In this document: positions 11,064 to 44,180 of the stretch, piece by piece
How positions within the stretch are numbered: position 1 is the first letter of the stretch
Layout of the letters: each line of letters begins with the position of its first letter
Assembly: GCA_965231055.1 (NCBI GenBank)
Contig: OZ246411.1
Location: forward strand, 473,875-537,874
Origin: an uncultured Candidatus Saccharibacteria bacterium
GTDB lineage: Bacteria > Patescibacteriota > CALEFQ01 > G965231055
Direction of reading: 5' to 3'
Length of the DNA stretch: 64,000 bases
Program-made: the position numbers and the translations under genes
The notes under the pieces: model-generated
Databases searched by the model: none
What the model was told of the DNA's origin: nothing
What the model saw: only the letters and a program-made list of their open reading frames with translations

Positions 11064-11138
11064 GCCGACTTAGCTCAGTGGTAGAGCAGCTGTTTTGTAA
11101 ACAGCAGGTCATCGGTTCAAGTCCGATAGTCGGCTCCA
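11064..11138 (+). tRNA. tRNA-Thr (anticodon TGT)
   Basis: Cloverleaf folded by hand: acceptor GCCGACT/AGTCGGC, anticodon stem GCTGT/ACAGC, loop TTTGTAA, T-arm GGTTCAAGTCC, 3' CCA encoded. Confidence 0.85.
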
Positions 11139-11202
11139 CGTCGCCACTGCGTTCGAGTGGAATCAAGGCAAGGTGTAGTACATTTAAAAGCAAAATAATT
11201 CT

Positions 11203-11288
11203 GGGTAGGTACCAAAGCGGTCAACTGGGTCAGACTGTAAATCTGATGCCTCCGGGCTTCGGGGGTTCGAATCCCTCCCTACCCACCA
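11203..11288 (+). tRNA. tRNA-Tyr (anticodon GTA), with a long variable arm
   Basis: Acceptor GGGTAGG/CCTACCC, anticodon loop CTGTAAA, long variable arm, T-arm GGTTCGAATCC, CCA encoded. Confidence 0.85.
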
Positions 11289-11407
11289 TGAAGTTAGGTT
11301 TTAGGTTCTAGGTCATGACTTCTTAAACAATGCAGTATTAAAACTTATAACCTCACACCTAAAACCTACCATCTAACACCTAGCACCTATAACCTAACAC
11401 CTCGTAA

Positions 11408-11483
11408 GGGCAGTTGGCTCAGTTGGTAGAGCGTTCGCGTCACATGCGAAAGGTCATAGGTTCGAATCCTATACTGCCCACCA
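11408..11483 (+). tRNA. tRNA-Val (anticodon CAC)
   Basis: Acceptor GGGCAGT/ACTGCCC, anticodon stem TTCGC/GCGAA, loop GTCACAT, T-arm GGTTCGAATCC, CCA encoded. Confidence 0.8.
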
Positions 11484-11585
11484 CTGATTAGCTTTTAGGT
11501 TATAGGTTTTAGGTCGCGACTTCTTAAAAAACGCTTGGTGCTAAAACCTAAAACCTGACATCTAAAATCTAATACCTAGTAATTA

Positions 11586-11662
11586 GGCCGTTGTAGCTCA
11601 GATGGTAGAGCAACTCCATGGTAAGGAGTAGGTCCGCGGTTCAATTCCGCGCAACGGCTCCA
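11586..11662 (+). tRNA. tRNA-Thr (anticodon GGT)
   Basis: Acceptor GGCCGTT/AACGGCT, anticodon stem ACTCC/GGAGT, loop ATGGTAA, T-arm GGTTCAATTCC, CCA encoded. Confidence 0.8.
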
Positions 11663-11764
11663 CATAACTAGGTTTCAGGTGATAGGTTCTAGGGATCAGA
11701 AGAACTAGGAATTGGCGATTTCTTCTAATCCACCCAATTTATTAATTATTAATTGATATATATT

Positions 11765-11935
11765 ATGAGCAAGAGCAAAGAAAATCTAGTAGTTCTGAAA
11801 TGCACAAAGTGTAATGAAGAAAATTACCACACTTTTAAAAATCGCAAGCTTCATCAGGACAAACTTGAGTTAAACAAGTATTGTTCCAAGTGCAAGATTC
11901 ATACTCCTCACAAGGAGATTAAGAAAAAAGGATAA
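11765..11935 (+). CDS. rpmG: 50S ribosomal protein bL33
   Basis: MSKSKENLVVLKCTKCNEENYHTFKNRKLHQDKLELNKYCSKCKIHTPHKE: a four-Cys zinc-ribbon L33. The tracked ORF is trimmed to the ATG at 11765. The gene is embedded in the tRNA cluster. Confidence 0.88.
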   Translation: MSKSKENLVVLKCTKCNEENYHTFKNRKLHQDKLELNKYCSKCKIHTPHKEIKKKG

Positions 11936-11974
11936 TTGGTAAGGGCTATTAGCGATAAGCTAATAGCTTCTGTT

Positions 11975-12048
11975 AGGGGGCATGGTTTAGTGGTAGAACA
12001 CTGGTCTCCAAAACCAGGGATGTGGGTTCGATTCCTACTGCCCCCGCC
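11975..12048 (+). tRNA. tRNA-Trp (anticodon CCA)
   Basis: Acceptor GGGGGCA/TGCCCCC, anticodon stem CTGGT/ACCAG, loop CTCCAAA, T-arm GGTTCGATTCC, CCA encoded. Confidence 0.82.
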
Positions 12049-12135
12049 AGACGGTTTTGTGTTTATCTGTTTGTATTTGCTTTTTTTATTCAATAGTACT
12101 GGTTGAATTTTTAAAGCAGGATTTAAGTTTAATAC

Positions 12136-12225
12136 GGAGAGGTGGCAGAGTGGTCGATCGCGCTGGTTTTGAAAACCAGTGTCCACTTTTGTGGACCGGG
12201 GGTTCGAATCCCTCCCTCTCCGCCA
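12136..12225 (+). tRNA. tRNA-Ser (anticodon TGA), with a long variable arm
   Basis: Acceptor GGAGAGG/CCTCTCC, anticodon loop TTTGAAA, long variable arm (GTCCACTTTTGTGGACC), T-arm GGTTCGAATCC, CCA encoded. Confidence 0.85.
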
Positions 12226-36076: not shown

Positions 36077-36154
36077 GGCGCTATCGTCTAGCCTGGCCTA
36101 GGACGCTAGGTTCTCATCCTAGTAACTCGGGTTCGAATCCCGATAGCGCTGCCA
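36077..36154 (+). tRNA. tRNA-Glu (anticodon CTC)
   Basis: Acceptor GGCGCTA/TAGCGCT with a G1-U72 wobble, anticodon stem CTAGG/CCTAG, loop TTCTCAT, T-arm GGTTCGAATCC, CCA encoded. Confidence 0.7.
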
Positions 36155-36190: not shown

Positions 36191-36217
36191 AAAAACCCCC
36201 GAGAGGGGGATTTTTTG
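36191..36217 (+). terminator. Rho-independent terminator after tRNA-Glu
   Basis: CCCCC-GAGA-GGGGG followed by TTTTTT. Confidence 0.7.
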
Positions 36218-36379: not shown

Positions 36380-36919
36380 ATGGAAAAATTCGACATAATT
36401 GACAAGGACGGAAATAAAACGGGAGAATCTATTCCTCGCGACAAAGTGCATCGCGAGGGGCTTTGGCATAAGAGCGTCCATGTTTGGATTATTAATGATA
36501 AAAACGAGCTCCTTCTTCAGAAGCGATCGCCGGAAAAAGATTCTCACCCCAATGAATGGGACATATCTACAGCCGGACATATTCATAGTGGAGAAACTCC
36601 AATTAATACCGCAATTCGTGAAGCCAAAGAAGAACTGGGCATAGACGTAAAAGAGAACGAGCTTGAAAAGCTTTGTACTCTCAAGAATCAAAGTGTCCAA
36701 CGAGATGGAAAATTTATAAATAATGAACTTGTGGATGTTTATCTCGTCAGAAAGAACCTTGATTTAAACAAGCTCACGCTTCAGCCGGAAGAAGTTTCAG
36801 AAGTTAAGTTGATACAATACAAAAATCTCCAGAGGATCATTGCCAGAGAAACTCCCGGCTATGTTTTGCACAAAGAAGAATGCGCGAAGTTATTTGAAGT
36901 TCTAGATAAACGCGTCTAA
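36380..36919 (+). CDS. NUDIX hydrolase
   Basis: Nudix box GHIHSGETPINTAIREAKEELGI. It is the first gene of the tRNA-Glu-adjacent island. Confidence 0.85.
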   Translation: MEKFDIIDKDGNKTGESIPRDKVHREGLWHKSVHVWIINDKNELLLQKRSPEKDSHPNEWDISTAGHIHSGETPINTAIREAKEELGIDVKENELEKLCTLKNQSVQRDGKFINNELVDVYLVRKNLDLNKLTLQPEEVSEVKLIQYKNLQRIIARETPGYVLHKEECAKLFEVLDKRV

Positions 36920-37166: not shown

Positions 37167-37877
37167 ATGGTTGATGTTAAAACAATCAAAATACTGGACG
37201 AGGTTGGCGGTGATCGATTCGAAAAAGCTTACTATGATATTTTTCTTCAGAATGAATTTTCGAATTACGAGAAATTCTGGCAAAAATATGTAGTTCCTCT
37301 TACCAACAGGCCGGCAGACTTGAATTTACTGGATCCTGTTGAATTGAGTAAACGAGGAAACGATGACCGAGATGTATGTATCGCACAACTTCACTACACA
37401 GTCTTAATGCATCTCATCCGCGTTTATAACATTAGACAAATAAAAACTCTAAATCTGGACGAATTCACGGAAGGCATTGTCAGATTGTCAGCTTCAACGG
37501 ATGTTGCAGATGAGCTTCTTGGACGAATGACATCGAAAGAAAAATATGACCCCTGGAATGAAGAACATGAAAAAGATTCTAGGCGAGACTGGCGAAAAGC
37601 CGGAAACGATCAGCTCCAATGGTTAAGAGATTATAGAAATAGGCAACTACACAGCATGGTTGCGCCATCGATAATCATTTATGGGAGTTACGAGCGACTT
37701 CGCGTTCCTAGATTTCGAAAGGAAAAAAAATATATGGATTGGCGTAATGTTACAAGTGTATCCATCGGTAGCGGGGGTATAGTAAGGAACGACTACGATT
37801 CGCCAAATAATTTAATTAATCACGCTTGGTCAGAAGTCCTCAAATATCTCAATGACCAGTGGGCAAAAGTTATATGA
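37167..37877 (+). CDS. Hypothetical protein, first gene of an overlapping pair. It contains an Rx4H motif (RNRQLH) that could indicate a HEPN-like fold.
   Basis: 236-aa ORF. Its stop overlaps the next gene's start in an ATGA arrangement. The short motif match alone is weak. Confidence 0.5.
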   Translation: MVDVKTIKILDEVGGDRFEKAYYDIFLQNEFSNYEKFWQKYVVPLTNRPADLNLLDPVELSKRGNDDRDVCIAQLHYTVLMHLIRVYNIRQIKTLNLDEFTEGIVRLSASTDVADELLGRMTSKEKYDPWNEEHEKDSRRDWRKAGNDQLQWLRDYRNRQLHSMVAPSIIIYGSYERLRVPRFRKEKKYMDWRNVTSVSIGSGGIVRNDYDSPNNLINHAWSEVLKYLNDQWAKVI

Positions 37878-38425
37878 TTATAAAAATTTATTGGAGGTGT
37901 AATAGTCTAGAAAGAGAAGTTTATGTTATAAAAAAAGAATGGGGATACGTCTCTGGTTTCGTGTACCCCATTATGCTGACGGATATTAAACATTTTCTAC
38001 CTCATTGGACTTATCACGGGGAATCAGGAAGGCCACCAGTAATACACCACAAGTCGTTTACTGGAAAAGAGATAGAGTTTATGACATTAAAAGCCGACTA
38101 TTTAAGAAAGTTTTCTGAATTTAATAATACGGTGATACATTCAACGCCTTCGTATGGCGCCAGTTTCCAAATTTTAGGGTGGGCCAATAATACAAAGGAT
38201 TATCCAGCTCATTACGACAGAAAAATCGTTTTTGATATCGATCTGTGTGATGCGAATCAGACTAGATATGTTCACATTCTTCTGCTGGATCGAAACTCGA
38301 AACAGCTAAAGGAAAAATGTGCAGATCTCGTCGGCAAGCATTATGAACTGATATCCTACGAGGTAATAGATGACGGTAATCAGCCGAACATTATGATATT
38401 ATTTACAGCAAATAAATCGATTTAA
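37874..38425 (+). CDS. Hypothetical protein, second gene of the overlapping pair
   Basis: ORF translationally coupled by the ATGA overlap at 37874-37877. The tracked ORF begins at 37859; the start is chosen at the ATG at 37874. No recognisable domain. Confidence 0.45.
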   Translation: MIIKIYWRCNSLEREVYVIKKEWGYVSGFVYPIMLTDIKHFLPHWTYHGESGRPPVIHHKSFTGKEIEFMTLKADYLRKFSEFNNTVIHSTPSYGASFQILGWANNTKDYPAHYDRKIVFDIDLCDANQTRYVHILLLDRNSKQLKEKCADLVGKHYELISYEVIDDGNQPNIMILFTANKSI

Positions 38426-38459: not shown

Positions 38460-38984
38460 TTGAAGAAAAATATGGCTCTGAGTAGAAAAATTGTGAAATT
38501 GGTTGAATACAATCCTGAGTGGCCAGGTTTTTTTAAGACGGAAGCTCGAAAACTTGGAAAGATTTTGAAATTGGATCGCTCAAGAATCGAACACGTCGGT
38601 AGCACTGCAATACCAGGTATGTCGGCGAAATCGGTTATAGATATTGCAGTTGGCGTCAGCTCAGTAGGTGAATTTGGCAAATATCAAGAGATGCTCAAAA
38701 AAGCCGGATATGTACTTCGTCCAAATGCGGGCTCGACTGGCAGGCAGTTCTATGCCAAGGGAGCAGAGAATTCTAGGACCCATTATGTACATCTAGTCGA
38801 ATACAAGAACGGTGAATGGGAAAACCTAATAAAATTTAGAGATTATCTAATCAAGAATCCTGACAAGGCGCAGGAATATGCAACGCTCAAGCAGGAGCTT
38901 GCCGATAAGTATCCCAATGACAGAGATTCATATAAGAGAGGTAAGGAGGAATTTATTGCAAAAATATTGGTTATGTCTAAATAA
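38460..38984 (+). CDS. GrpB-family protein (UPF0157, nucleotidyltransferase fold)
   Basis: LVEYNPEWPGFF...IEHVGSTAIPGMSAKSVIDIAV...HYVHLVEY, the GrpB signature. Confidence 0.75.
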   Translation: MKKNMALSRKIVKLVEYNPEWPGFFKTEARKLGKILKLDRSRIEHVGSTAIPGMSAKSVIDIAVGVSSVGEFGKYQEMLKKAGYVLRPNAGSTGRQFYAKGAENSRTHYVHLVEYKNGEWENLIKFRDYLIKNPDKAQEYATLKQELADKYPNDRDSYKRGKEEFIAKILVMSK

Positions 38985-39117
38985 CTATCCACAGAAACAC
39001 TTCTCTCCAGAAACAACCAAGATTGTGTAGTTCCTTGAATATGCCATTATTATTTTTATAATTAGTGATATATGAAATACTCAAGAAGAAAATTAAATAA
39101 AAAAGAGTGTATAAAAA

Positions 39118-40464
39118 ATGCTAATCGCATCGGTTAACTTAAATAAAAGACTGGGGAATTTAAAATCCAGGAATAAAGCTCACAATTGGATGTTGAGCGG
39201 CGATTTTGGAATTGTGGTAGCCCAAGAACCTTGGCGAAAATCATCAGATTTTAATGGGATGTTTGATGAGTTTAAACCCATCGGTGGGAATGAAAAAGTA
39301 TTTGCTTGGATTGACTCTAACTATGAAATACCAAGCCAAAAGCTTATAAAAGAATATTTGCAGCGGATAGAGCTTGATTATGTGATTATTTATAATGTTT
39401 ATTTGGATGCTTATAAGCAATCAAAAAGAGCTGAGCAGATAAGCGAGATAAAGAAATGTGCCATGCATGAAGGAAATAGACCGATACTTATCGTTGGTGA
39501 TTTTAATCTTGCGCCAAATCCAAAGGACGGCTTGTTTAATGGGAAATCAAGCGCCTTTAATTCTGAAATCGATAGGAAACCCTTTAGGGATTTGCTAACT
39601 AAATGCAAATTAAATGACTCCACAGCTGATTTTTCAAAAGAAAAATTCACGATAGAAAAATGCATTCACGGCAAGACATCTAAATTCAGGTGTGATTTGG
39701 CTTTGGTTTCTGACTATCTGTTGGATGATATTTCTGTTTCCTATGATCACTCTATTAGGATAGGTGGTGGCGCTTTTACTGATCATTCGGCGATAAGGCT
39801 AAATGCTCCCGTGAGTCTTCCAGGGTCACTCAATAAAACTGGATTGCTTTTTTCGACGAAGAATGAGCAGGGGAATAAATTTGAAAATGATTACGGCGCT
39901 CCATGCTGCTCTTATAAAACAGCTATGTCACGAAAATCGGAATCTCCGATAGCACGTTTTGTGCACGAGGAGCTGAGTAGTAGCTTGAAAATAGCGTCAA
40001 TTTTGGACTATGGATGTGGAAGAGGCGTAGATGTAGGATATTATTTAAAAAATGGCTATCAATGCGATGGTTATGATCCGCATGAGCTTTTTGGCTTCAG
40101 CATCTTGCCAAATAAGCAATATGATTTGATTACTATAATATTTGTGTTGAACGTACTTCCCGATCCATTTCAAAGACTTCAAGTCTTGGAAAAAGCAGCA
40201 AAGTATATGAAAGATGACGGCATGATGTTGGTGGTTTGTCGTTCTCCTAAAGAAATAGCCAGCGAAGTCTCTAAAAAATGCTGGATAAAACATAATGATG
40301 GATTTTGGTCGCACCAAGGTAGGAAAACTTTTCAAAAAGGAATCTCTCGTGAAGAAATTATTAGGCTTGCGAAAAGAGTAAACCTAGTTCCTTATGACCT
40401 AAGCGAAAGCATTAAATATCCGAATAATGCCTCTTTCCTTATATTGAAAAACAAAATCCATTAA
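39118..40464 (+). CDS. Fusion protein: N-terminal endonuclease/exonuclease/phosphatase (EEP) domain plus C-terminal class-I SAM-dependent methyltransferase domain
   Basis: EEP motifs (VVAQEPW; ILIVGDFNLAPN; FTDHSAIRLN) are followed by MTase motif I (ILDYGCGRGVDVGYY) and a post-I acidic motif (DLITIIFVLNVL). Confidence 0.7.
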   Translation: MLIASVNLNKRLGNLKSRNKAHNWMLSGDFGIVVAQEPWRKSSDFNGMFDEFKPIGGNEKVFAWIDSNYEIPSQKLIKEYLQRIELDYVIIYNVYLDAYKQSKRAEQISEIKKCAMHEGNRPILIVGDFNLAPNPKDGLFNGKSSAFNSEIDRKPFRDLLTKCKLNDSTADFSKEKFTIEKCIHGKTSKFRCDLALVSDYLLDDISVSYDHSIRIGGGAFTDHSAIRLNAPVSLPGSLNKTGLLFSTKNEQGNKFENDYGAPCCSYKTAMSRKSESPIARFVHEELSSSLKIASILDYGCGRGVDVGYYLKNGYQCDGYDPHELFGFSILPNKQYDLITIIFVLNVLPDPFQRLQVLEKAAKYMKDDGMMLVVCRSPKEIASEVSKKCWIKHNDGFWSHQGRKTFQKGISREEIIRLAKRVNLVPYDLSESIKYPNNASFLILKNKIH

Positions 40465-40712
40465 ACTTCTGATCTTGACTTTGATCAGGTCACAGATTGT
40501 ACAGATCAACTAGGGTGCTATTATATACACAGAACTTAAGTGGTTACTGCGGACTAATTTTCTAAAGGCCATGTTGGAACATGGAAATCACCATCCAATT
40601 CGCAAAAAAAGGTTCCGATTGTGTCCGCCGCCTTTGGCGGGGCAGGCTACTGTGGCCTGCCACAAAAGCATTCAGTATTCAGTTGTTAGTGTTAAGCGAT
40701 AAGCATATAAAT

Positions 40713-40735
40713 ACCCGCGAAAGCGGGTTTTTGTT
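40713..40735 (+). terminator. Rho-independent terminator
   Basis: CCCGC-GAAA-GCGGG followed by TTTTTG. Two further GC-rich hairpins precede it (40625-40662). Confidence 0.65.
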
Positions 40736-40781
40736 TACATTGGCAAATAATTTCTGTTTTTGGTATTATTAGCTTTGTCTT

Positions 40782-41867
40782 ATGAAAAACAAAGAAAAAA
40801 ATATATCTGTATTCTGGATAGTAAAAAAGCTAATCACACTCAATAAAAAGGGTGTTTTTAGATATTTATTTAGAGCATGGAGAGTTATTTTCAATATTCC
40901 CGTCGCGTATTTCCGCAGAAAAGCCAATGCAAGGAATGGGCTAGAAGTTTCAAAGGGGGTAGGTATTAGCCCCACCTCAAGATGCAATTATAGTTGCAAG
41001 GGATGCTACGCGAGATTTAATATTGACGAAAAAGAATTGGATACTAGTGTTTTTGATAGATTTCTTTTTGAAGCTGAAAAAGAAGGAGTTATATTTGTTG
41101 TGGTGAGCGGGGGAGAACCTTTCGCTAAACCCGACATGATTGATTTGTTTGAGAGACATAGAAAGATGTTTTTTCTCGTGATAACGAATGGTAGTTATCT
41201 AAATAAAAAACTCATTATGCGGATTCGGAAATCTGCAAATGTAGTTGTTGTCGTGAGCGTGGAAGGAGATAAAAATCAGACTGATTTTAGAAGGGGATCG
41301 GGTGCATATGAAACTTCCTTAAACGCGATGAGGTTACTTCGTTTGTCAGATGTTCCTTTTGGTTTTTCTGTGACCCTGACTAGGCGCAATATTTCTATGT
41401 TTCAAGAATATTCGTTTATAGGTAAAATGATTGATGAAGGGGCTTTACTTGGTTTTTTCAATACGCTAGTTCCTTTTTCAAAAGAAGACATAGAATTTGT
41501 TCCCGACAAAGAAGATCTAATAAAGTTTACTGAGAACATAAATAATATTAGAAAAAAGCGTTCTATTGCTATCATGCATCTACCTGACGATGAATATATT
41601 GGGTACGAAAAATGTTTATTTGTAAATGGAGGCGCTTTTCATGTAAATTCCCAGGGATATGTGGAACCGTGTCCTTTTGCTCATTTTGCTGTTGAAAATA
41701 TATCAAAAAGCTCATTCAAGGATGTCCTTAGGTCTCCTTTTTTGAAAGCGATACGAGAAGATGATAAGCTATTGAAGAAGGGGGAGCTTGGATGCTCTTT
41801 AGTTAGCCATTATGAAGAATTAAATAAATTAGCTATAAAATATGGAGCCAAAATCACAAAAAACTAA
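40782..41867 (+). CDS. Radical SAM enzyme with a C-terminal SPASM/twitch-type auxiliary Cys motif
   Basis: CX3CX2C (SPTSRCNYSCKGCYA), GGEP motif (VVSGGEPF), and a C-terminal CLFVNGGAFHVNSQGYVEPCPF...GCSL pattern typical of SPASM/twitch domains. Confidence 0.78.
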   Translation: MKNKEKNISVFWIVKKLITLNKKGVFRYLFRAWRVIFNIPVAYFRRKANARNGLEVSKGVGISPTSRCNYSCKGCYARFNIDEKELDTSVFDRFLFEAEKEGVIFVVVSGGEPFAKPDMIDLFERHRKMFFLVITNGSYLNKKLIMRIRKSANVVVVVSVEGDKNQTDFRRGSGAYETSLNAMRLLRLSDVPFGFSVTLTRRNISMFQEYSFIGKMIDEGALLGFFNTLVPFSKEDIEFVPDKEDLIKFTENINNIRKKRSIAIMHLPDDEYIGYEKCLFVNGGAFHVNSQGYVEPCPFAHFAVENISKSSFKDVLRSPFLKAIREDDKLLKKGELGCSLVSHYEELNKLAIKYGAKITKN

Positions 41868-42786
41868 TACCGTTGAACTTTTGCATAGACACGATGACGC
41901 CACATCAAATTTTATAATAGAGTATTTGAAAAATGATGATGGGTTTATTGAACTAGCAAAAAAAGAAACAGCTCGCATATTGAAACGAGACCAGGATGAT
42001 CTCGAAAAGCTTGAAAAAGGAATACAGTATTCAATAAAAAGAGGAATCTTAAGGAGTGATATCTCGATTCCCTCTGCCAAAAAAGTTTTTGTGGAAAATA
42101 AAAATTCAGATGAAGTGGCTGATGAAATACTTTCTCAGGTTGCGGGGAATGCTGATGTTGGGGGAGTTTTGGTGGCTATAGATGGGCTATCTGGAACTGG
42201 CAAGGGTACTACCGTAAAAAAACTTCTCAAGAAAATGCCAAATAGTCTACCATGGTCAAACGGGGATGTTTTTAGGAGTCTCACTTATTTTGTTGTGAAC
42301 TATCTTAATTCACACAAAATTAATTTTAGCGAAAAAGAATTAGCTCCTGATTTAATGAAAGAGGCAGTTGGAAAAATTGCCTTTGAAGAAAATAAAAACG
42401 GATTTGATTTGTTTGTGATTGGAGATAATAAAAAAGAAAGAGTCGCTGACATAAGGGATACAAGACTCAAAGAGCCAAGAGTAGCAGAAAGAATTCCTAT
42501 GATTTCATGTCTCACTCAGGGTGAAGTAATAAATTTTACTAACGACGCCGTTTCAAAACTTAAAAATCATGGAAAAAATATAATTATTGAAGGTAGGAGA
42601 GTGACACTACGATATCTTGATACCCAAAATAGATTTGAGCTTTCTATTTCTGACAAAAATGTATTGGGTCAAAGAAGGGCTGCTCAGAGAATTTCAGCAA
42701 TGGCAATGGATCTACTTAATTTGGGGAGCGTCTCCCAATCAGCATTAATAAATGAAGCGCTCAATAAAATAATTAAAGAAGACTAA
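41842..42786 (+). CDS. Cytidylate-kinase-like P-loop NMP kinase with an N-terminal extension of about 110 aa
   Basis: Walker A LVAIDGLSGTGKGTT, a Cmk-like IIEGRRVTL (compare DGRDIGT), and a C-terminal LGQRRAAQR. It overlaps the radical-SAM gene by 26 nt in another frame. Confidence 0.6.
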   Translation: MEPKSQKTNTVELLHRHDDATSNFIIEYLKNDDGFIELAKKETARILKRDQDDLEKLEKGIQYSIKRGILRSDISIPSAKKVFVENKNSDEVADEILSQVAGNADVGGVLVAIDGLSGTGKGTTVKKLLKKMPNSLPWSNGDVFRSLTYFVVNYLNSHKINFSEKELAPDLMKEAVGKIAFEENKNGFDLFVIGDNKKERVADIRDTRLKEPRVAERIPMISCLTQGEVINFTNDAVSKLKNHGKNIIIEGRRVTLRYLDTQNRFELSISDKNVLGQRRAAQRISAMAMDLLNLGSVSQSALINEALNKIIKED

Positions 42787-43794
42787 ATGAAGAAAATACA
42801 TTTTATTATTATTGGATTGCTTGCTCTCGGGATTGTTTTGGTTTGGATTTTGATGCCTGAAAAGAAAGAGAAAATAACTGAAACCAAGAATGCGGAAGTA
42901 GTTGAGGAAGAAGTGGAAGATGTAGAAAAACCAAAGGAGCCCATAAGCTTAATTGCCGTGGGGGATGTGATGCTTTCTAGGCACGTTTGGACCAAAATAA
43001 AACAATCTGGTGATATGGCACTTCCTTTTAGGGAAACTCATGAAATCACCTCCATGGCTGATGTTAGTTTTGCGAACCTAGAAACTTCAGTTTCCACAAT
43101 GCAAGAGCCTCCTAGTGAAGGTATGAGCTTCATGGCAGATCCTAGGTCGCTTGAAGGGCTAAAACTTGGCGGGTTTGATGTGATTTCATTGGCAAACAAT
43201 CATTCACATAATTTTGGAGACCAGGCGCTACTTGATACTATAGAAATCGTAAATGAAAATGGCTTCAAAACGATAGGAGCAGGTAAGGATTACGATGATG
43301 CGAACAAGCCTCTTATTTATGAGGTGAAAAACCAGAAAATAGCATTTTTTGCATATGAAGATGTGGTTCCTGATTCTTATGCTTCCGGAGTGGGTGATCC
43401 AGGAGTTGCGTGGATGGATACGGAAGTTATGAAGAAAAATGTTTCAGCTTTGAAAAAAGCAAATTTGGTTGATTACATTATTGTGTCTATGCATTCGGGT
43501 GTTGAATATGTGAAAACTCCCAATGATATTCAGGTTAAGTTTGCTCGTTCGGCAATAGATGCTGGTGCCAATCTAGTTATGGGGCATCATCCTCATGTAA
43601 CTCAAACCAAGGAAACTTATAAAAATGGATATATAATATATAGTCTTGGAAATTTTGTTTTTGATCAAATGTGGTCAGAGGAAACTAGGATGGGAGAAAT
43701 ATTTAAATGCACATTGGATAACGGAGAGATAAAAGACATTGAATTTATGAAAACCAAAATATACGACTACAATCAACCAAGAGTGGAAAACTAA
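42787..43794 (+). CDS. CapA/PGA_cap-family metallophosphoesterase, membrane-anchored
   Basis: N-terminal TM segment, then LIAVGDVMLSRHV...FANLETS...SLANNHSHNFG...GHHPH metallophosphatase motifs. Its start abuts the upstream stop (TAAATG). Confidence 0.75.
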   Translation: MKKIHFIIIGLLALGIVLVWILMPEKKEKITETKNAEVVEEEVEDVEKPKEPISLIAVGDVMLSRHVWTKIKQSGDMALPFRETHEITSMADVSFANLETSVSTMQEPPSEGMSFMADPRSLEGLKLGGFDVISLANNHSHNFGDQALLDTIEIVNENGFKTIGAGKDYDDANKPLIYEVKNQKIAFFAYEDVVPDSYASGVGDPGVAWMDTEVMKKNVSALKKANLVDYIIVSMHSGVEYVKTPNDIQVKFARSAIDAGANLVMGHHPHVTQTKETYKNGYIIYSLGNFVFDQMWSEETRMGEIFKCTLDNGEIKDIEFMKTKIYDYNQPRVEN

Positions 43795-43862
43795 TTTTCT
43801 TGCATTCTTTTTTGGACTTCTGTATAATTCAACTTCCGCTTAAAAATAATAAAATAAAATTT

Positions 43863-44180
43863 ATGGCAACAAAAATAACAGATGCTGAGTTTGAGGAAAA
43901 AGTAATTAAATCAAATAAGCCAGTTTTAGTGGATTTTTTCGCAGAATGGTGTGGTCCATGCAAGATGATGGGTCCTGTGATAGATGAACTTGCCAAAGAA
44001 TACGAAGGCAAAGTTGATATATACAAGATAGATACAGATCAAAATCCCGAGACAGCTCAGAAATTCGGTATTATGAGCATTCCAACATTGATAATCTTTC
44101 AAAACGGAGAAGTAAAAGAACAACTTATGGGAGCTCAAGCCAAAGAAATGCTCAAATCCAAACTAGACGAACTTAACTAA
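43863..44180 (+). CDS. trxA: Thioredoxin
   Basis: WCGPC active site and the thioredoxin fold. The tracked ORF is trimmed to the ATG at 43863. Confidence 0.9.
   Translation: MATKITDAEFEEKVIKSNKPVLVDFFAEWCGPCKMMGPVIDELAKEYEGKVDIYKIDTDQNPETAQKFGIMSIPTLIIFQNGEVKEQLMGAQAKEMLKSKLDELN

Follow-up and report, generated by a model that had tools for sequence, protein, structure and literature searches.

A conserved fusion of an EEP nuclease domain and a class-I methyltransferase domain, encoded in a very small bacterial genome apart from the cassette that accompanies most of its homologs

The 64-kb stretch of DNA analysed here (the window) carries on its forward strand a gene in which an EEP domain and a SAM-dependent methyltransferase domain are joined in one reading frame. 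The features of the gene and its immediate flanks, with positions counted from the first letter of the window, are as follows.

39035..39062, + strand: promoter-like site (TTGAAT, 16-nt spacer, TATAAT) from a consensus scan, 10/12 matches
39118..40464, + strand: ORF of the EEP-methyltransferase fusion, complete, 448 aa plus stop codon
39118..39828, + strand: EEP nuclease domain of the ExoIII/APE1/LINE-1 type, aa 1-237
39829..39900, + strand: interdomain linker, aa 238-261, gappy, poorly conserved and variable in length
39901..40461, + strand: class-I SAM methyltransferase domain, aa 262-448
40713..40728, bidirectional: intrinsic-terminator-like hairpin (ACCCGC-GAAA-GCGGGT) followed by a T-run

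The ORF begins with an ATG and runs without internal stop or frameshift. Its start codon is considered correct because the N-terminus aligns residue for residue with homologs, and the protein as a whole aligns end to end with 29 of them (30-sequence alignment A1). The identical protein (P0001) is present in public collections on an NCBI contig of 843,892 bp and was also recovered on an independently assembled contig from a sequencing run. Public annotation names the family "methyltransferase domain-containing protein" and nothing more. The first-pass annotation had described a single polypeptide combining an EEP domain with a class-I methyltransferase, and this description holds: the 448-aa ORF is intact, its architecture is common to hundreds of homologs, and the motifs quoted at the time, GDFN (D128/N130), DHS (D222/H223) and GCGRG (G299-G303), are all present. 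Since this architecture recurs in hundreds of homologs of equal length, the fusion is not a join created by sequencing error. Two ORFs split by a frameshift or stop, an outcome that would have undone the earlier description, were not found; an artefact of this kind is excluded by the single frame, by homologs that are collinear and by the recovery of the identical protein from an independent contig. Streptomyces does contain decayed or rearranged remnants of this family (e.g., a 397-aa protein in which only residues 343-444 of the methyltransferase survive), and the gene could in principle result from faulty annotation or assembly or be a pseudogene in decay. The window copy, however, is full length, collinear with ~445-aa homologs of several phyla and in possession of all invariant residues, and the probability of this explanation is close to nil; for the window copy it is already refuted by the intact ORF, the independent contig, the alignment and the invariant residues.

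The promoter-like site lies 56 nt upstream of the ATG and is suggestive only, the count of such sites in the region not being above shuffle expectation. The hairpin at 40713-40728 lies ~250 nt past the stop codon, where a structured spacer ends, and probably marks the end of the fusion transcript. The flanking terminators previously ascribed to the gene are weakly supported, since no terminator-like hairpin was detected upstream, the one at 40713-40728 being the only clean hairpin overall. Searched against Rfam at E<=1, the 317-nt spacer gave no credible match, merely three weak matches to unrelated families far below their gathering scores. An exact 23-mer of its GC hairpin recurs in 8 contigs, but these are unrelated and have unalignable flanks, so that the hairpin provides no synteny information.

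The N-terminal half contains the EEP catalytic set N7, E37, Y95, D128, N130, D193, D222 and H223, with N7, E37, D128, N130, D193, D222 and H223 invariant in 30/30 aligned sequences and in 18/18 solo and cassette copies of the gene (see below). The domain scores under the Pfam thresholds for PF03372 (13.8 vs 24.5 bits) and PF14529 (17.1 vs 27.4 bits), but homologs exceed the PF03372 threshold (e.g., 33.3 bits for the protein of locus L006) and it is, therefore, regarded as a divergent member of PF03372 rather than a non-member. A profile of the family searched against the PDB matched, for this half, only LINE-1 endonuclease, ExoIII and APE1 (best E=7.6e-7). In the AlphaFold2 model of the whole protein (pLDDT 88.2, pTM 0.88; linker residues 238-261 below a pLDDT of 50) it adopts the four-layer alpha/beta sandwich of the EEP fold, which in Foldseek aligns with LINE-1 endonuclease, APE1 and ExoIII at E down to 1.5e-13 and a TM, normalised to the target, of 0.64-0.75 (0.73-0.75 for the best matches); the top 50 matches comprise LINE-1 endonuclease, AP endonucleases and one regulator of AP-endonuclease fold (Crc). 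Structure prediction, which had been proposed as the means to identify the EEP subfamily, thus points to the ExoIII/APE1/LINE-1 type, and this clade is the closest affiliation of the EEP half judging from both profile and model. Against NCBIfam, this half hits xth with E=2.7e-5, but the Xth equivalogs TIGR00633 and TIGR00195 are reached with only 23.8 and 16.6 bits (cutoffs 99.05 and 182.55) in partial alignments. Because its score is so far below the xth equivalog cutoff, the fusion is not an Xth ortholog.

The C-terminal half matches PF13489 (Methyltransf_23) over aa 276-423 with 41.2 bits (cutoff 27, E=1.8e-10). Its motif I, D297-x-G-C-G-x-G-x-D305 (here D297-Y-G-C-G-R-G), is invariant, as is D320, the acidic residue that ends beta2, and the post-beta4 segment reads V343-L-N345. 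Family-specific motifs are W389, D394-G395 and T404-F-Q-x-G408 and, at the N-terminus of the domain, K-T-A-x-x-R (T268/A269/R272). The domain model (pLDDT 90.1) retrieved generic class-I methyltransferases with Foldseek, the nearest being CypM, Trm9, GNMT and DnrK (TM <=0.67), whose acceptors are small molecules, peptides or tRNA; CcbJ and toxoflavin methyltransferase were also among the structural matches, and a viral structure library yielded generic methyltransferases and capping enzymes only. No DNA methyltransferase occurred in the Foldseek top 50. The [DNS]PP[YFW] motif is absent from the fusion, which has no PP dipeptide in its 448 aa and reads V-L-N-V-L-P after beta4. As to DNA cytosine-5 hallmarks, there is no ENV motif, and the sole P-C lies in the linker (A-P-C-C, aa 258-261), where it is unconserved in homologs. 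Since both DNA-methyltransferase motifs and DNA methyltransferases in the top 50 are lacking, DNA methylation is not indicated, and the earlier suggestion of cleavage coupled to DNA methylation finds no backing in this half of the protein. On its motifs and predicted structure, the methyltransferase half is a divergent fold of the small-molecule/RNA type, related to part of TIGR04096. The same clade comprises the TIGR04096 region, stand-alone proteins of ~190 aa and recurrent methyltransferase-HIT fusions, and is also found in mobile operons of the FtsK/HerA type. Neighbourhoods of the stand-alone homologs are variable and mobile-looking and carry no functional information, and a search with a JGI-annotated TIGR04096 member of 183 aa retrieved short proteins and methyltransferase-HIT fusions only.

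Trm9, a tRNA methyltransferase, is the second-best structural match of this half, and weak similarity to cap guanine-N7 methyltransferases recurs. Both would fit an enzyme that heals or protects RNA ends by analogy with Hen1 and Pnkp, the EEP half removing a 3'-phosphate or cyclic phosphate and the methyltransferase 2'-O-methylating or otherwise capping the RNA end. EEP enzymes include 3'-phosphatases and RNA deadenylases, which counts in the same direction, and RNA-end processing or repair had already been suggested in the first-pass annotation. The nearest relatives of the EEP half, however, are all DNA-acting, Hen1 is absent from the top structural matches, and neither the window nor the homologs' cassette holds a ligase or kinase partner; we consider this explanation improbable.

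The fusion family is conserved at ~445 aa and comprises 282 hits and, at E<=1e-30, 315 cluster representatives; its members come from Actinomycetota, Acidobacteriota, Bacteroidota and bacteria with small genomes (CPR-type). The word "unusual", used of the fusion in the first-pass annotation, thus does not apply in the sense of rare, since the family is widespread and conserved. It had also been asked there whether this might be a common family with a known housekeeping role; the family is indeed widespread, but it is uncharacterised and no housekeeping role is known for it. The pairing of EEP and methyltransferase occurs as the ~445-aa fusion, as separate genes and together with extra HNH or DEDD nucleases, the further-fused relatives being EEP-MT-DEDD exonuclease (P0244), EEP-MT-HNH (P0245) and EEP-DEDD exonuclease (P0326), where DEDD denotes a 3'-5' exonuclease. 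Both domains are familiar, but their obligatory pairing is undescribed in the literature searched, in PADLOC and, beyond generic names, in curated families. No description of the fusion or of the cassette discussed below was found in a literature search that left subscription journals mostly outside, and a reappraisal of Dnd (NAR 2024, PMC10853773) makes no mention of EEP, DCD, LysR or the methyltransferase of the fusion.

A survey of gene neighbourhoods, suggested at the outset as a check, proved informative in that it revealed a conserved cassette of seven genes around the homologs, which is absent from the 64-kb window. The cassette, first observed at five independent loci with protein families defined by blastp, encodes a LysR-like regulator, the EEP-methyltransferase, a DCD-like protein, a HIT-like protein, a protein of ~310 aa (U310), a cysteine desulfurase and a MazG-like protein. 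It is found in 35/42 well-flanked reference-genome loci (the MazG-like gene in 37/42), a figure that overstates the number of independent observations because the genome sample is dominated by Streptomyces. In most genomes the fusion gene lies 9-56 nt downstream of the LysR-like gene in the same orientation; opposite these two runs a divergent operon for the DCD-fold (dCTP-deaminase/dUTPase) protein, the HIT-fold protein, the ~310-aa protein and the cysteine desulfurase, and the gene of the small MazG-like NTP pyrophosphohydrolase lies alongside. A divergent LysR gene and enzyme operon form a classic metabolic or stress layout, unlike known defence systems, which speaks against a conflict reading. 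The cysteine desulfurase matches the PADLOC models of DndA/SspA with E of about 1e-133; PADLOC (2023) has no models for the other cassette genes and none for the cassette as a whole. U310 had no match in the PDB by profile search, and its candidacy as a divergent PPDK_N/ATP-grasp protein, raised by an RSDGGxE motif, was rejected (hhalign probability 0.1%). Resolvase, integrase and transposase genes occur near cassette loci, and a full cassette is carried by plasmid pSMg1-2 of Streptomyces sp. Mg1, whose fusion homolog is WP_037791868.1. The cassette is patchily distributed and often plasmid-borne or near integrases.

In the window the fusion gene is an orphan. A tblastn search with all cassette proteins gave the fusion itself and otherwise no match with E below 0.03, and neither of the two upstream ORFs without annotation (236 and 188 aa) matched a cassette partner by tblastn or blastp. 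An Rx4H motif had suggested HEPN for the 236-aa ORF, which found no support in Pfam, NCBIfam, PADLOC, the PDB or plasmids. Other solo copies (L045, L051 and L052) occur in at least three other lineages, and the window fusion and these loci have no neighbours in common. The GC content around the gene is flat (0.36-0.40) without compositional break, and a search for an att-like direct repeat of the nearby tRNA-Glu was negative. These observations, together with the lack of shared neighbours, lend little weight to the placement of the gene in an accessory island that had been proposed before. All 18 copies examined, solo or in a cassette, keep the invariant residues. Without partners, yet with every catalytic and family residue kept, the window fusion must, therefore, be able to work alone. 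The solo copies likewise indicate that the cassette is not required, which weakens inference from the cassette to the window gene.

What, then, might the protein do? A nucleic-acid-directed role is favoured by the predicted affiliation of the EEP half with the ExoIII/APE1/LINE-1 clade and by the relatives that carry DEDD or HNH domains. The N-terminal half would be a metal-dependent phosphodiesterase of this branch of the EEP superfamily, which most likely introduces nicks into DNA or trims its ends, DNA being the presumed substrate. The C-terminal half would be a class-I methyltransferase of a distinctive clade, with SAM binding predicted from its intact motifs, that may either methylate what the nuclease acts on or produces, or couple nuclease activity to SAM. 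Because the cassette is conserved, patchy and linked to plasmids and integrases, the fusion is read as the nucleic-acid-acting arm of a mobile cassette. We propose a nuclease-methyltransferase that acts on DNA and derives from a mobile cassette for the modification of nucleotides or DNA, this cassette being probably a conflict or defence system; for this proposal we see the arguments as evenly balanced. The earlier idea of a defence effector keeps the status of a suggestion; PADLOC-DB v2.0.0 gives for the fusion a sole match, mad2, which is weak and partial (20.5 bits, E=4.4e-5, aa 323-379), and for its neighbours in the window weak or radical-SAM-core-only matches (PDC-S07, pVip). A bolder and distinctly more tentative version has the fusion as the DNA arm of an undescribed mobile seven-gene system in which a sulfur- and/or methyl-bearing nucleotide or DNA modification is made or read. 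Such a pathway, serving modification-based immunity or DNA modification, would be new and separate from Dnd, Ssp, Dpd and classical R-M; the LysR-like protein would be its sensor or regulator, and the fusion could also act alone in a small genome.

The same neighbours admit a reading in terms of repair, in which the fusion is a DNA-repair or nucleotide-pool-sanitising enzyme (an AP-endonuclease or 3'-end cleaner) and the cassette a LysR-controlled stress module, with MazG, dUTPase-fold and HIT proteins for house-cleaning and the desulfurase for Fe-S repair; the window copy would then be a stand-alone repair nuclease. The repair enzymes ExoIII, APE1, NExo and ExoA are indeed the nearest relatives in sequence and structure, the neighbours have folds typical of house-cleaning (MazG-like, DCD-fold and HIT-fold), the LysR-type regulator is divergently arranged, and a solo gene with intact sites is retained in small genomes. 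We nevertheless hold this reading to be unlikely, as the protein falls far short of an Xth ortholog (23.8 bits vs 99.05 for the equivalog), the family is patchy and mobile or plasmid-borne, relatives carry added HNH or DEDD nucleases, and a strictly conserved, obligatorily fused methyltransferase is left unexplained. Somewhat less likely still seems a small-molecule tailoring enzyme, acting for instance on a thio- or methyl-modified nucleotide or nucleoside, with the EEP half as a phosphatase on an intermediate from the DCD, HIT, U310 and desulfurase proteins and the methyltransferase methylating thereafter. The proximity of the methyltransferase fold to natural-product and small-molecule enzymes (DnrK, CcbJ, toxoflavin methyltransferase, GNMT) would agree with this, as would a LysR-linked cassette of nucleotide enzymes and a sulfur donor that is commonest in Streptomyces. 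However, the EEP half falls in a DNA-endonuclease clade and not in the phosphatase clades, some relatives bear a fused DEDD exonuclease or HNH domain, the solo copies in CPR-type genomes lack a pathway that would supply them, and members of the methyltransferase clade are found in mobile operons of the FtsK/HerA type as well.

The cassette combines a sulfur donor of the Dnd/Ssp type, dNTP-handling folds and an AP-endonuclease-like nuclease, and the fusion family offers a handle on it. If the cassette modifies DNA or nucleotides, it would represent new chemistry in bacterial self/non-self discrimination; should it be a stress-repair module, Streptomyces would have in it a new repair regulon under LysR control. 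The window gene, an apparent orphan import in a very small genome, represents a minimal, partner-free version of the enzyme that would be useful for biochemistry.

Compared with known systems, the EEP domain has the same fold as ExoIII/APE1 and LINE-1 ORF2p endonuclease and the same constellation N, E, Y/H, D-x-N, D, D-H. It differs from them in an identity of only ~16-20%, in its compactness (~237 aa), in invariant residues of its own (K10, R18, W24, W64, R104, R153, F190-R191-C192 and R214) and, throughout the family, in its constant association with a methyltransferase, fused or paired. Single-chain R-M enzymes also join a nuclease and a SAM-dependent methyltransferase in one polypeptide. 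The fusion resembles Type IIG/IIL enzymes such as BpuSI (discussed in PMC10853773) and MmeI in this respect. These, however, combine a PD-(D/E)XK nuclease, a gamma-class N6-adenine methyltransferase (NPPY-type) and a target-recognition domain, whereas the fusion has an EEP nuclease, no [DNS]PP[YFW] motif and a methyltransferase of small-molecule-type fold, and it does not qualify for this class; there is no room for a target-recognition domain because the two domains and the linker account for all 448 residues. Bacterial Hen1 is the RNA 3'-end 2'-O-methyltransferase of Pnkp/Hen1 repair, in which end-processing goes together with protective class-I methylation. The fusion may be likened to it in concept, in that it could couple end-processing with protective methylation, but its EEP half is of the DNA type, no Pnkp-like kinase/ligase is a neighbour, and the Foldseek top 50 do not include Hen1.

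The likeness to Dnd and Ssp lies in the DndA/SspA-type cysteine desulfurase of the homologs' cassette and in a methyltransferase related to a dnd-associated family. In place of DndB, C, D or E and SspB, C or D, for none of which a homolog was detected in the cassette, the partners are DCD-fold, HIT-fold, U310 and MazG-like proteins, and the window is without a desulfurase. The dnd-associated family is TIGR04096 ([quoted passage not shown], uncharacterised), to which the methyltransferase of the fusion is homologous at model positions 6-142 of 478 (E=4.2e-15); with 55.5 bits against a cutoff of 150 and below one third of the model covered, it is not a full-length member. Annotated TIGR04096 genes were recovered by tblastn; the TIGR04096 proteins of plasmids are 649-679 aa long, with extra N- and C-terminal regions and without an EEP domain, and their genes share an operon with that of a giant FtsK/SpoIIIE protein. 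What TIGR04096 and the fusion have in common, besides the homologous region, is their occurrence in mobile contexts with conflict or DNA-modification genes.

The gene at 39118..40464 (+) is a single ORF of 448 aa with an ATG start and without internal stops. The first-pass annotation had read it as a single-polypeptide fusion of an EEP nuclease and a SAM methyltransferase (MT), and this reading holds: Pfam, profile and model evidence supports both domains within one uninterrupted ORF, and the quoted motifs are present, i.e., L-I-V-G-D-F-N (D128/N130) and F-T-D-H-S (D222/H223) in the EEP half and L-D-Y-G-C-G-R-G (D297-G303) as MT motif I. In the alignment, homologs share its start position and open with M-x-L-A-S-(V/I)-N-L-N-K-R, and the annotated ATG is, therefore, correct. 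An identical protein is on record twice, from an NCBI contig of 843,892 bp and from a contig of a sequencing run that was assembled independently. An assembly or annotation artefact was considered and rejected, since the ORF is single and same-length homologs match across the full query; this explanation can practically be dismissed.

Methyltransf_23 was detected by Pfam at aa 276-423 (41.2 bits vs. a threshold of 27), whereas the EEP half of the window copy is sub-threshold (PF03372, 13.8 vs. 24.5 bits; PF14529, 17.1 vs. 27.4 bits), although it matches NCBIfam xth (E=2.7e-5). These scores alone are weak support for an EEP domain, but three independent lines decide the matter. With a profile of 30 family sequences, PDB matches for residues 1-230 were confined to chains of LINE-1 endonuclease, ExoIII and APE1 (best E=7.6e-7); homologs of the fusion pass the PF03372 threshold; and the N-terminal half of an alignment-based AlphaFold2 model (mean pLDDT 88.2, pTM 0.88; disorder only at linker residues 238-261) fits LINE-1 endonuclease and AP endonucleases in Foldseek (E=1.5e-13 to 1e-10), with a target-normalised TM of 0.64-0.75. 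A stress or repair module is an alternative reading that we consider unlikely.

In the 30-sequence alignment the EEP catalytic columns N7 (plus N9), E37, D128, N130, D193, D222 and H223 are invariant, and position 95 is Y or H. Homology to the known EEP motifs equates N7, E37, D128, N130, D193, D222 and H223 with N68, E96, D210, N212, D283, D308 and H309 of APE1. The EEP half also carries family-specific basic and aromatic residues (K10, R18, W24, W64, R104, R153, F190-R191-C192, R214). In the MT half, motif I (D297, G299, C300, G301, G303, D305), the acidic D320 ending beta2, V343-L344-N345 after beta4, an N-terminal K-T-A-x-x-R element (T268, A269, R272) and R375, W389, D394-G395, S398 and T404-F405-Q406-x-G408 are invariant, and stand-alone MT homologs conserve these same positions. 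Sequence and model show an intact EEP active site, of the kind seen in ExoIII, APE1 and LINE-1, and an intact class-I MT that is predicted to bind SAM and has a conserved family-specific substrate side, in a two-domain arrangement that the confident model presents as fixed.

The 448-aa sequence contains no PP dipeptide and, therefore, no [DNS]PP[YFW] motif; sequence and alignment likewise contain no conserved PC or ENV motif. Modelled separately, the MT domain is a generic class-I Rossmann methyltransferase (pLDDT 90.1) with CypM, Trm9, glycine N-methyltransferases, DnrK, CcbJ and toxoflavin methyltransferase as best PDB matches (E ~1e-7, TM <=0.67). DNA methyltransferases are absent among its best 50 PDB structural matches, and matches to viral structures were limited to generic and capping-enzyme methyltransferases. 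By these motif and structure comparisons, the nuclease half has the appearance of a DNA enzyme, and the MT half that of something other than a DNA base methyltransferase. Tailoring of a small molecule or nucleotide, for which an MT with such matches might be suited, seems quite unlikely for a protein with this nuclease half, and Hen1-like healing of RNA ends very unlikely.

A search of 5.8 billion clustered proteins returned 282 matches; the best 120 of these are nearly all 430-470 aa long, with 94-100% query coverage and 39-48% identity, and their precomputed Pfam content is PF13489 + PF03372. When 1.84 billion representatives (50% identity) were searched by HMM, 3517 matched at E<=1e-3; of these, 315 reached E<=1e-30, among which ~60-70 are full-length fusion representatives. 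Hosts include Streptomyces, Micromonospora, Saccharothrix, Nonomuraea, Pseudonocardiaceae and Kribbella, as well as Acidobacteriota; a Bacteroidetes MAG and one genome of candidate division Kazan (CPR) also encode the fusion. If "unusual" is read as unique, the description of the fusion is thus not borne out, given 282 matches and hosts in several phyla. The HMM search also yielded high-scoring separate EEP-only (~235 aa) and MT-only (~190 aa) proteins, and other, longer relatives carry additional nucleases:

P0244, 631 aa: EEP-MT-DNA_pol_A_exo1 (DEDD exonuclease)
P0245, 824 aa: EEP-MT-HNH_4
P0326: EEP-DNA_pol_A_exo1, without MT

These added domains are the strongest architectural argument for nucleic acid as the probable target of the family. 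EEP-only ORFs of 233-242 aa with close sequence kinship to the N-terminal half of the fusion, neither including the MT half, occur in an alphaproteobacterial MAG (L066, 7799-8500) and an Acidobacteriia MAG (L069, 10001-10729). MT-HIT fusions recur as a sizeable family of ~281 aa (P0344-P0367, e.g., Hymenobacter sp. M29).

A survey of gene neighbourhoods revealed a conserved cassette in five independent homolog loci, fetched by exact protein look-up, and this context is the most informative result of the analysis. Close to the fusion and LysR-like pair, a divergent operon encodes DCD, HIT, U310, usually the desulfurase and sometimes a PPDK-like protein:

LysR-like HTH_1 protein, 333-387 aa, adjoining the fusion gene, conserved in the five loci
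DCD, a dCTP-deaminase/dUTPase-fold protein, ~182 aa (PF22769; TIGR02274, E=9e-18)
HIT-fold protein, ~200-226 aa, invariant HxHxH (PDB profile matches CWF19L1, Fhit and HIT proteins)
U310, 296-314 aa, no match in Pfam, NCBIfam, PADLOC or PDB
Cysteine desulfurase, usually present (PADLOC DndA + SspA, E ~1e-133)
PPDK-like protein, present in some cassettes
MazG-like NTP pyrophosphohydrolase, ~105 aa, adjoining the fusion

Scanning one genome per species gave 48 loci with a full-length fusion, 42 of them adequately flanked. LysR-like, DCD, HIT, U310 and desulfurase genes were each found in 35 of the 42, the MazG-like gene in 37 and the PPDK-like gene in 5; Streptomyces dominates the sample, so that these counts do not represent independent events. 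In this reference-genome scan the fusion gene starts 9-56 nt after the end of the LysR-like gene. The same cassette occurs outside Streptomyces in a Bacteroidetes MAG, Kribbella (rearranged), Acidobacteriota and unclassified metagenome contigs, and is complete on plasmid pSMg1-2 of Streptomyces sp. Mg1, where three genes are "hypothetical protein" in RefSeq. Resolvases, integrases, transposases and an SLFN-type helicase lie near the fusion in other loci. PADLOC has no model for cassette members other than the desulfurase. The HIT/DcpS_C-type domain of the MT-HIT fusions parallels the separate HIT-fold gene of the actinobacterial cassette. Proteins named "transcriptional regulator" in many Streptomyces genomes (L087, 6143-7336, on a plasmid of Streptomyces sp. 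NBC_00667; also L060-L079) match only the last ~100 MT residues (aa 343-444, 33% identity), lack SAM motif I and are encoded directly beside the MazG-like gene of the cassette; they resemble rearranged cassette remnants or a reused C-terminal module travelling with MazG.

The window carries a solo copy, i.e., a fusion gene without cassette partners: tblastn with the partner proteins found nothing below E=0.03 in the 64 kb. Its surroundings are as follows:

36077-36154, tRNA-Glu(CTC)
36380-36919, NUDIX hydrolase
37167-37877 (+), 236-aa ORF, no family match
37859-38425 (+), 188-aa ORF overlapping the 236-aa ORF, no credible family match (marginal PADLOC match, E=0.0055)
38460-38984, GrpB
39118-40464 (+), EEP-MT fusion
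40465-40781, structured spacer, 317 nt
40782-41867 (+), radical SAM/SPASM protein
41842-42786 (+), cytidylate-kinase-like protein, 314 aa, weak (d)CMP-kinase-like P-loop region
42787-43794, CapA/PGA_cap protein
43800-44180, thioredoxin-like ORF, WCGPC motif as sole basis

The proposed accessory island is not supported, as there is neither a compositional break (window GC ~37%) nor repeats. A strong bidirectional terminator hairpin (36196-36209) directly follows tRNA-Glu(CTC), and no att-like repeat matching the tRNA 3' end was found downstream. As for terminators of the fusion's own, one bidirectional hairpin (40713-40728) was found; otherwise there is only a promoter-like site (39035-39062). 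No neighbour genes are common to the window and the other solo loci (Kazan L045, L005, Bryobacteraceae L051, Actinomycetota L052). In a neighbour-joining tree the window protein clusters with cassette-borne L002 and L004, beside solo small-genome L005 and L045, and solo L051 and L052 are placed elsewhere; these separate positions mean that the solo state has more than one origin. The small size of the contig, the GC of ~37% and this closeness in the tree to Kazan and other small-contig copies suggest that the host is probably a CPR-like organism with a small genome. No solo copy has lost any of the catalytic or family-specific residues, and the enzyme is, therefore, predicted to function without the cassette.

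For the 236- and 188-aa ORFs, neither Pfam, NCBIfam, PADLOC and the PDB nor plasmids gave a credible match. The 236-aa ORF, a singleton among 15 billion proteins, encodes an RNRQLH motif (Rx4H, HEPN-like), and its neighbourhood includes the GrpB (nucleotidyltransferase-fold) gene; a toxin-antitoxin or abortive-infection pair can be imagined here, albeit without support. The radical SAM/SPASM and (d)CMP-kinase-like genes overlap by 26 nt, a pairing (40782-42786) that, to our mind, recalls viperin/CMPK2. PADLOC pVip models match only the radical-SAM core, and the SPASM domain argues for a maturase-type enzyme different from viperin. The 317-nt spacer folds better than shuffles (z=-2.96), has a terminator at its end and no credible Rfam match (three weak matches far below gathering scores). 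Its GC-rich 23-mer CCGCCGCCTTTGGCGGGGCAGGC (40625-40647), single-copy within the window, is exact in 8 unrelated metagenome contigs that differ strongly in GC and have unalignable flanks, a recurrence well above chance by rough estimate; it might represent a small mobile/REP-like hairpin or belong to an RNA motif not yet described. Elsewhere, six tRNA genes (Thr, Tyr, Val, Thr, Trp, Ser) lie within 1.2 kb (11064-12225, +).

We propose that the EEP half would hydrolyse phosphodiester bonds in DNA, by nicking it or by processing AP sites or 3' ends, and that the MT half would methylate a target at or near the cleavage substrate or render cleavage SAM-responsive. In its usual setting the fusion would be the arm that acts on nucleic acid in a mobile, LysR-linked cassette, the remaining enzymes of which would handle (deoxy)nucleotides and mobilise sulfur. 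A role in conflict or modification, taken together, is favoured at about even chances, and defence specifically is rated lower, because the distribution is patchy and plasmid- and integrase-associated, relatives carry added HNH and DEDD nucleases, the cassette desulfurase is of the Dnd/Ssp type, and the MT is related to a clade of FtsK-type mobile operons.

The closest named family to the MT is NCBIfam TIGR04096, [quoted passage not shown], matched at E=4.2e-15 (55.5 bits vs. a cutoff of 150) over model positions 6-142 only. To our knowledge, this family is itself uncharacterised. Genuine members, on alpha- and betaproteobacterial plasmids, have 649-679 aa and no EEP domain, unlike the 448-aa fusion. 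Two loci on alphaproteobacterial plasmids were examined:

L085, 1-10452, Microvirga plasmid
L086, 1-10527, Azospirillum plasmid

In both, the TIGR04096 gene closes a four-gene operon: a pair of hypothetical genes (products of ~510-610 aa) comes first, followed by a giant FtsK/SpoIIIE gene (1660-1770 aa) and the MT gene, with no dnd genes in the vicinity; the Microvirga locus has a further 209-aa hypothetical gene, and an integrase adjoins the operon in one of the two. A 2024 reappraisal of Dnd systems contains no discussion of TIGR04096 (PMC10853773). Neither the fusion nor the cassette was found described in full-text searches, whose coverage of subscription-journal papers is small. Both domains are of known kinds and the family is already in databases under generic names ("methyltransferase domain-containing protein", "exonuclease III/SAM-dependent methyltransferase"); the fusion does not, therefore, form a new category, and the window copy adds a further member to an existing family. 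However, we found no described enzyme class or system in which an AP-endonuclease-like EEP is obligately joined to a non-DNA-type MT, and likewise no counterpart of the seven-gene cassette. It is possible, though on balance doubtful, that the cassette represents an undescribed sulfur-/methyl-based nucleotide/DNA modification or immunity system, with the fusion as its DNA-acting arm.
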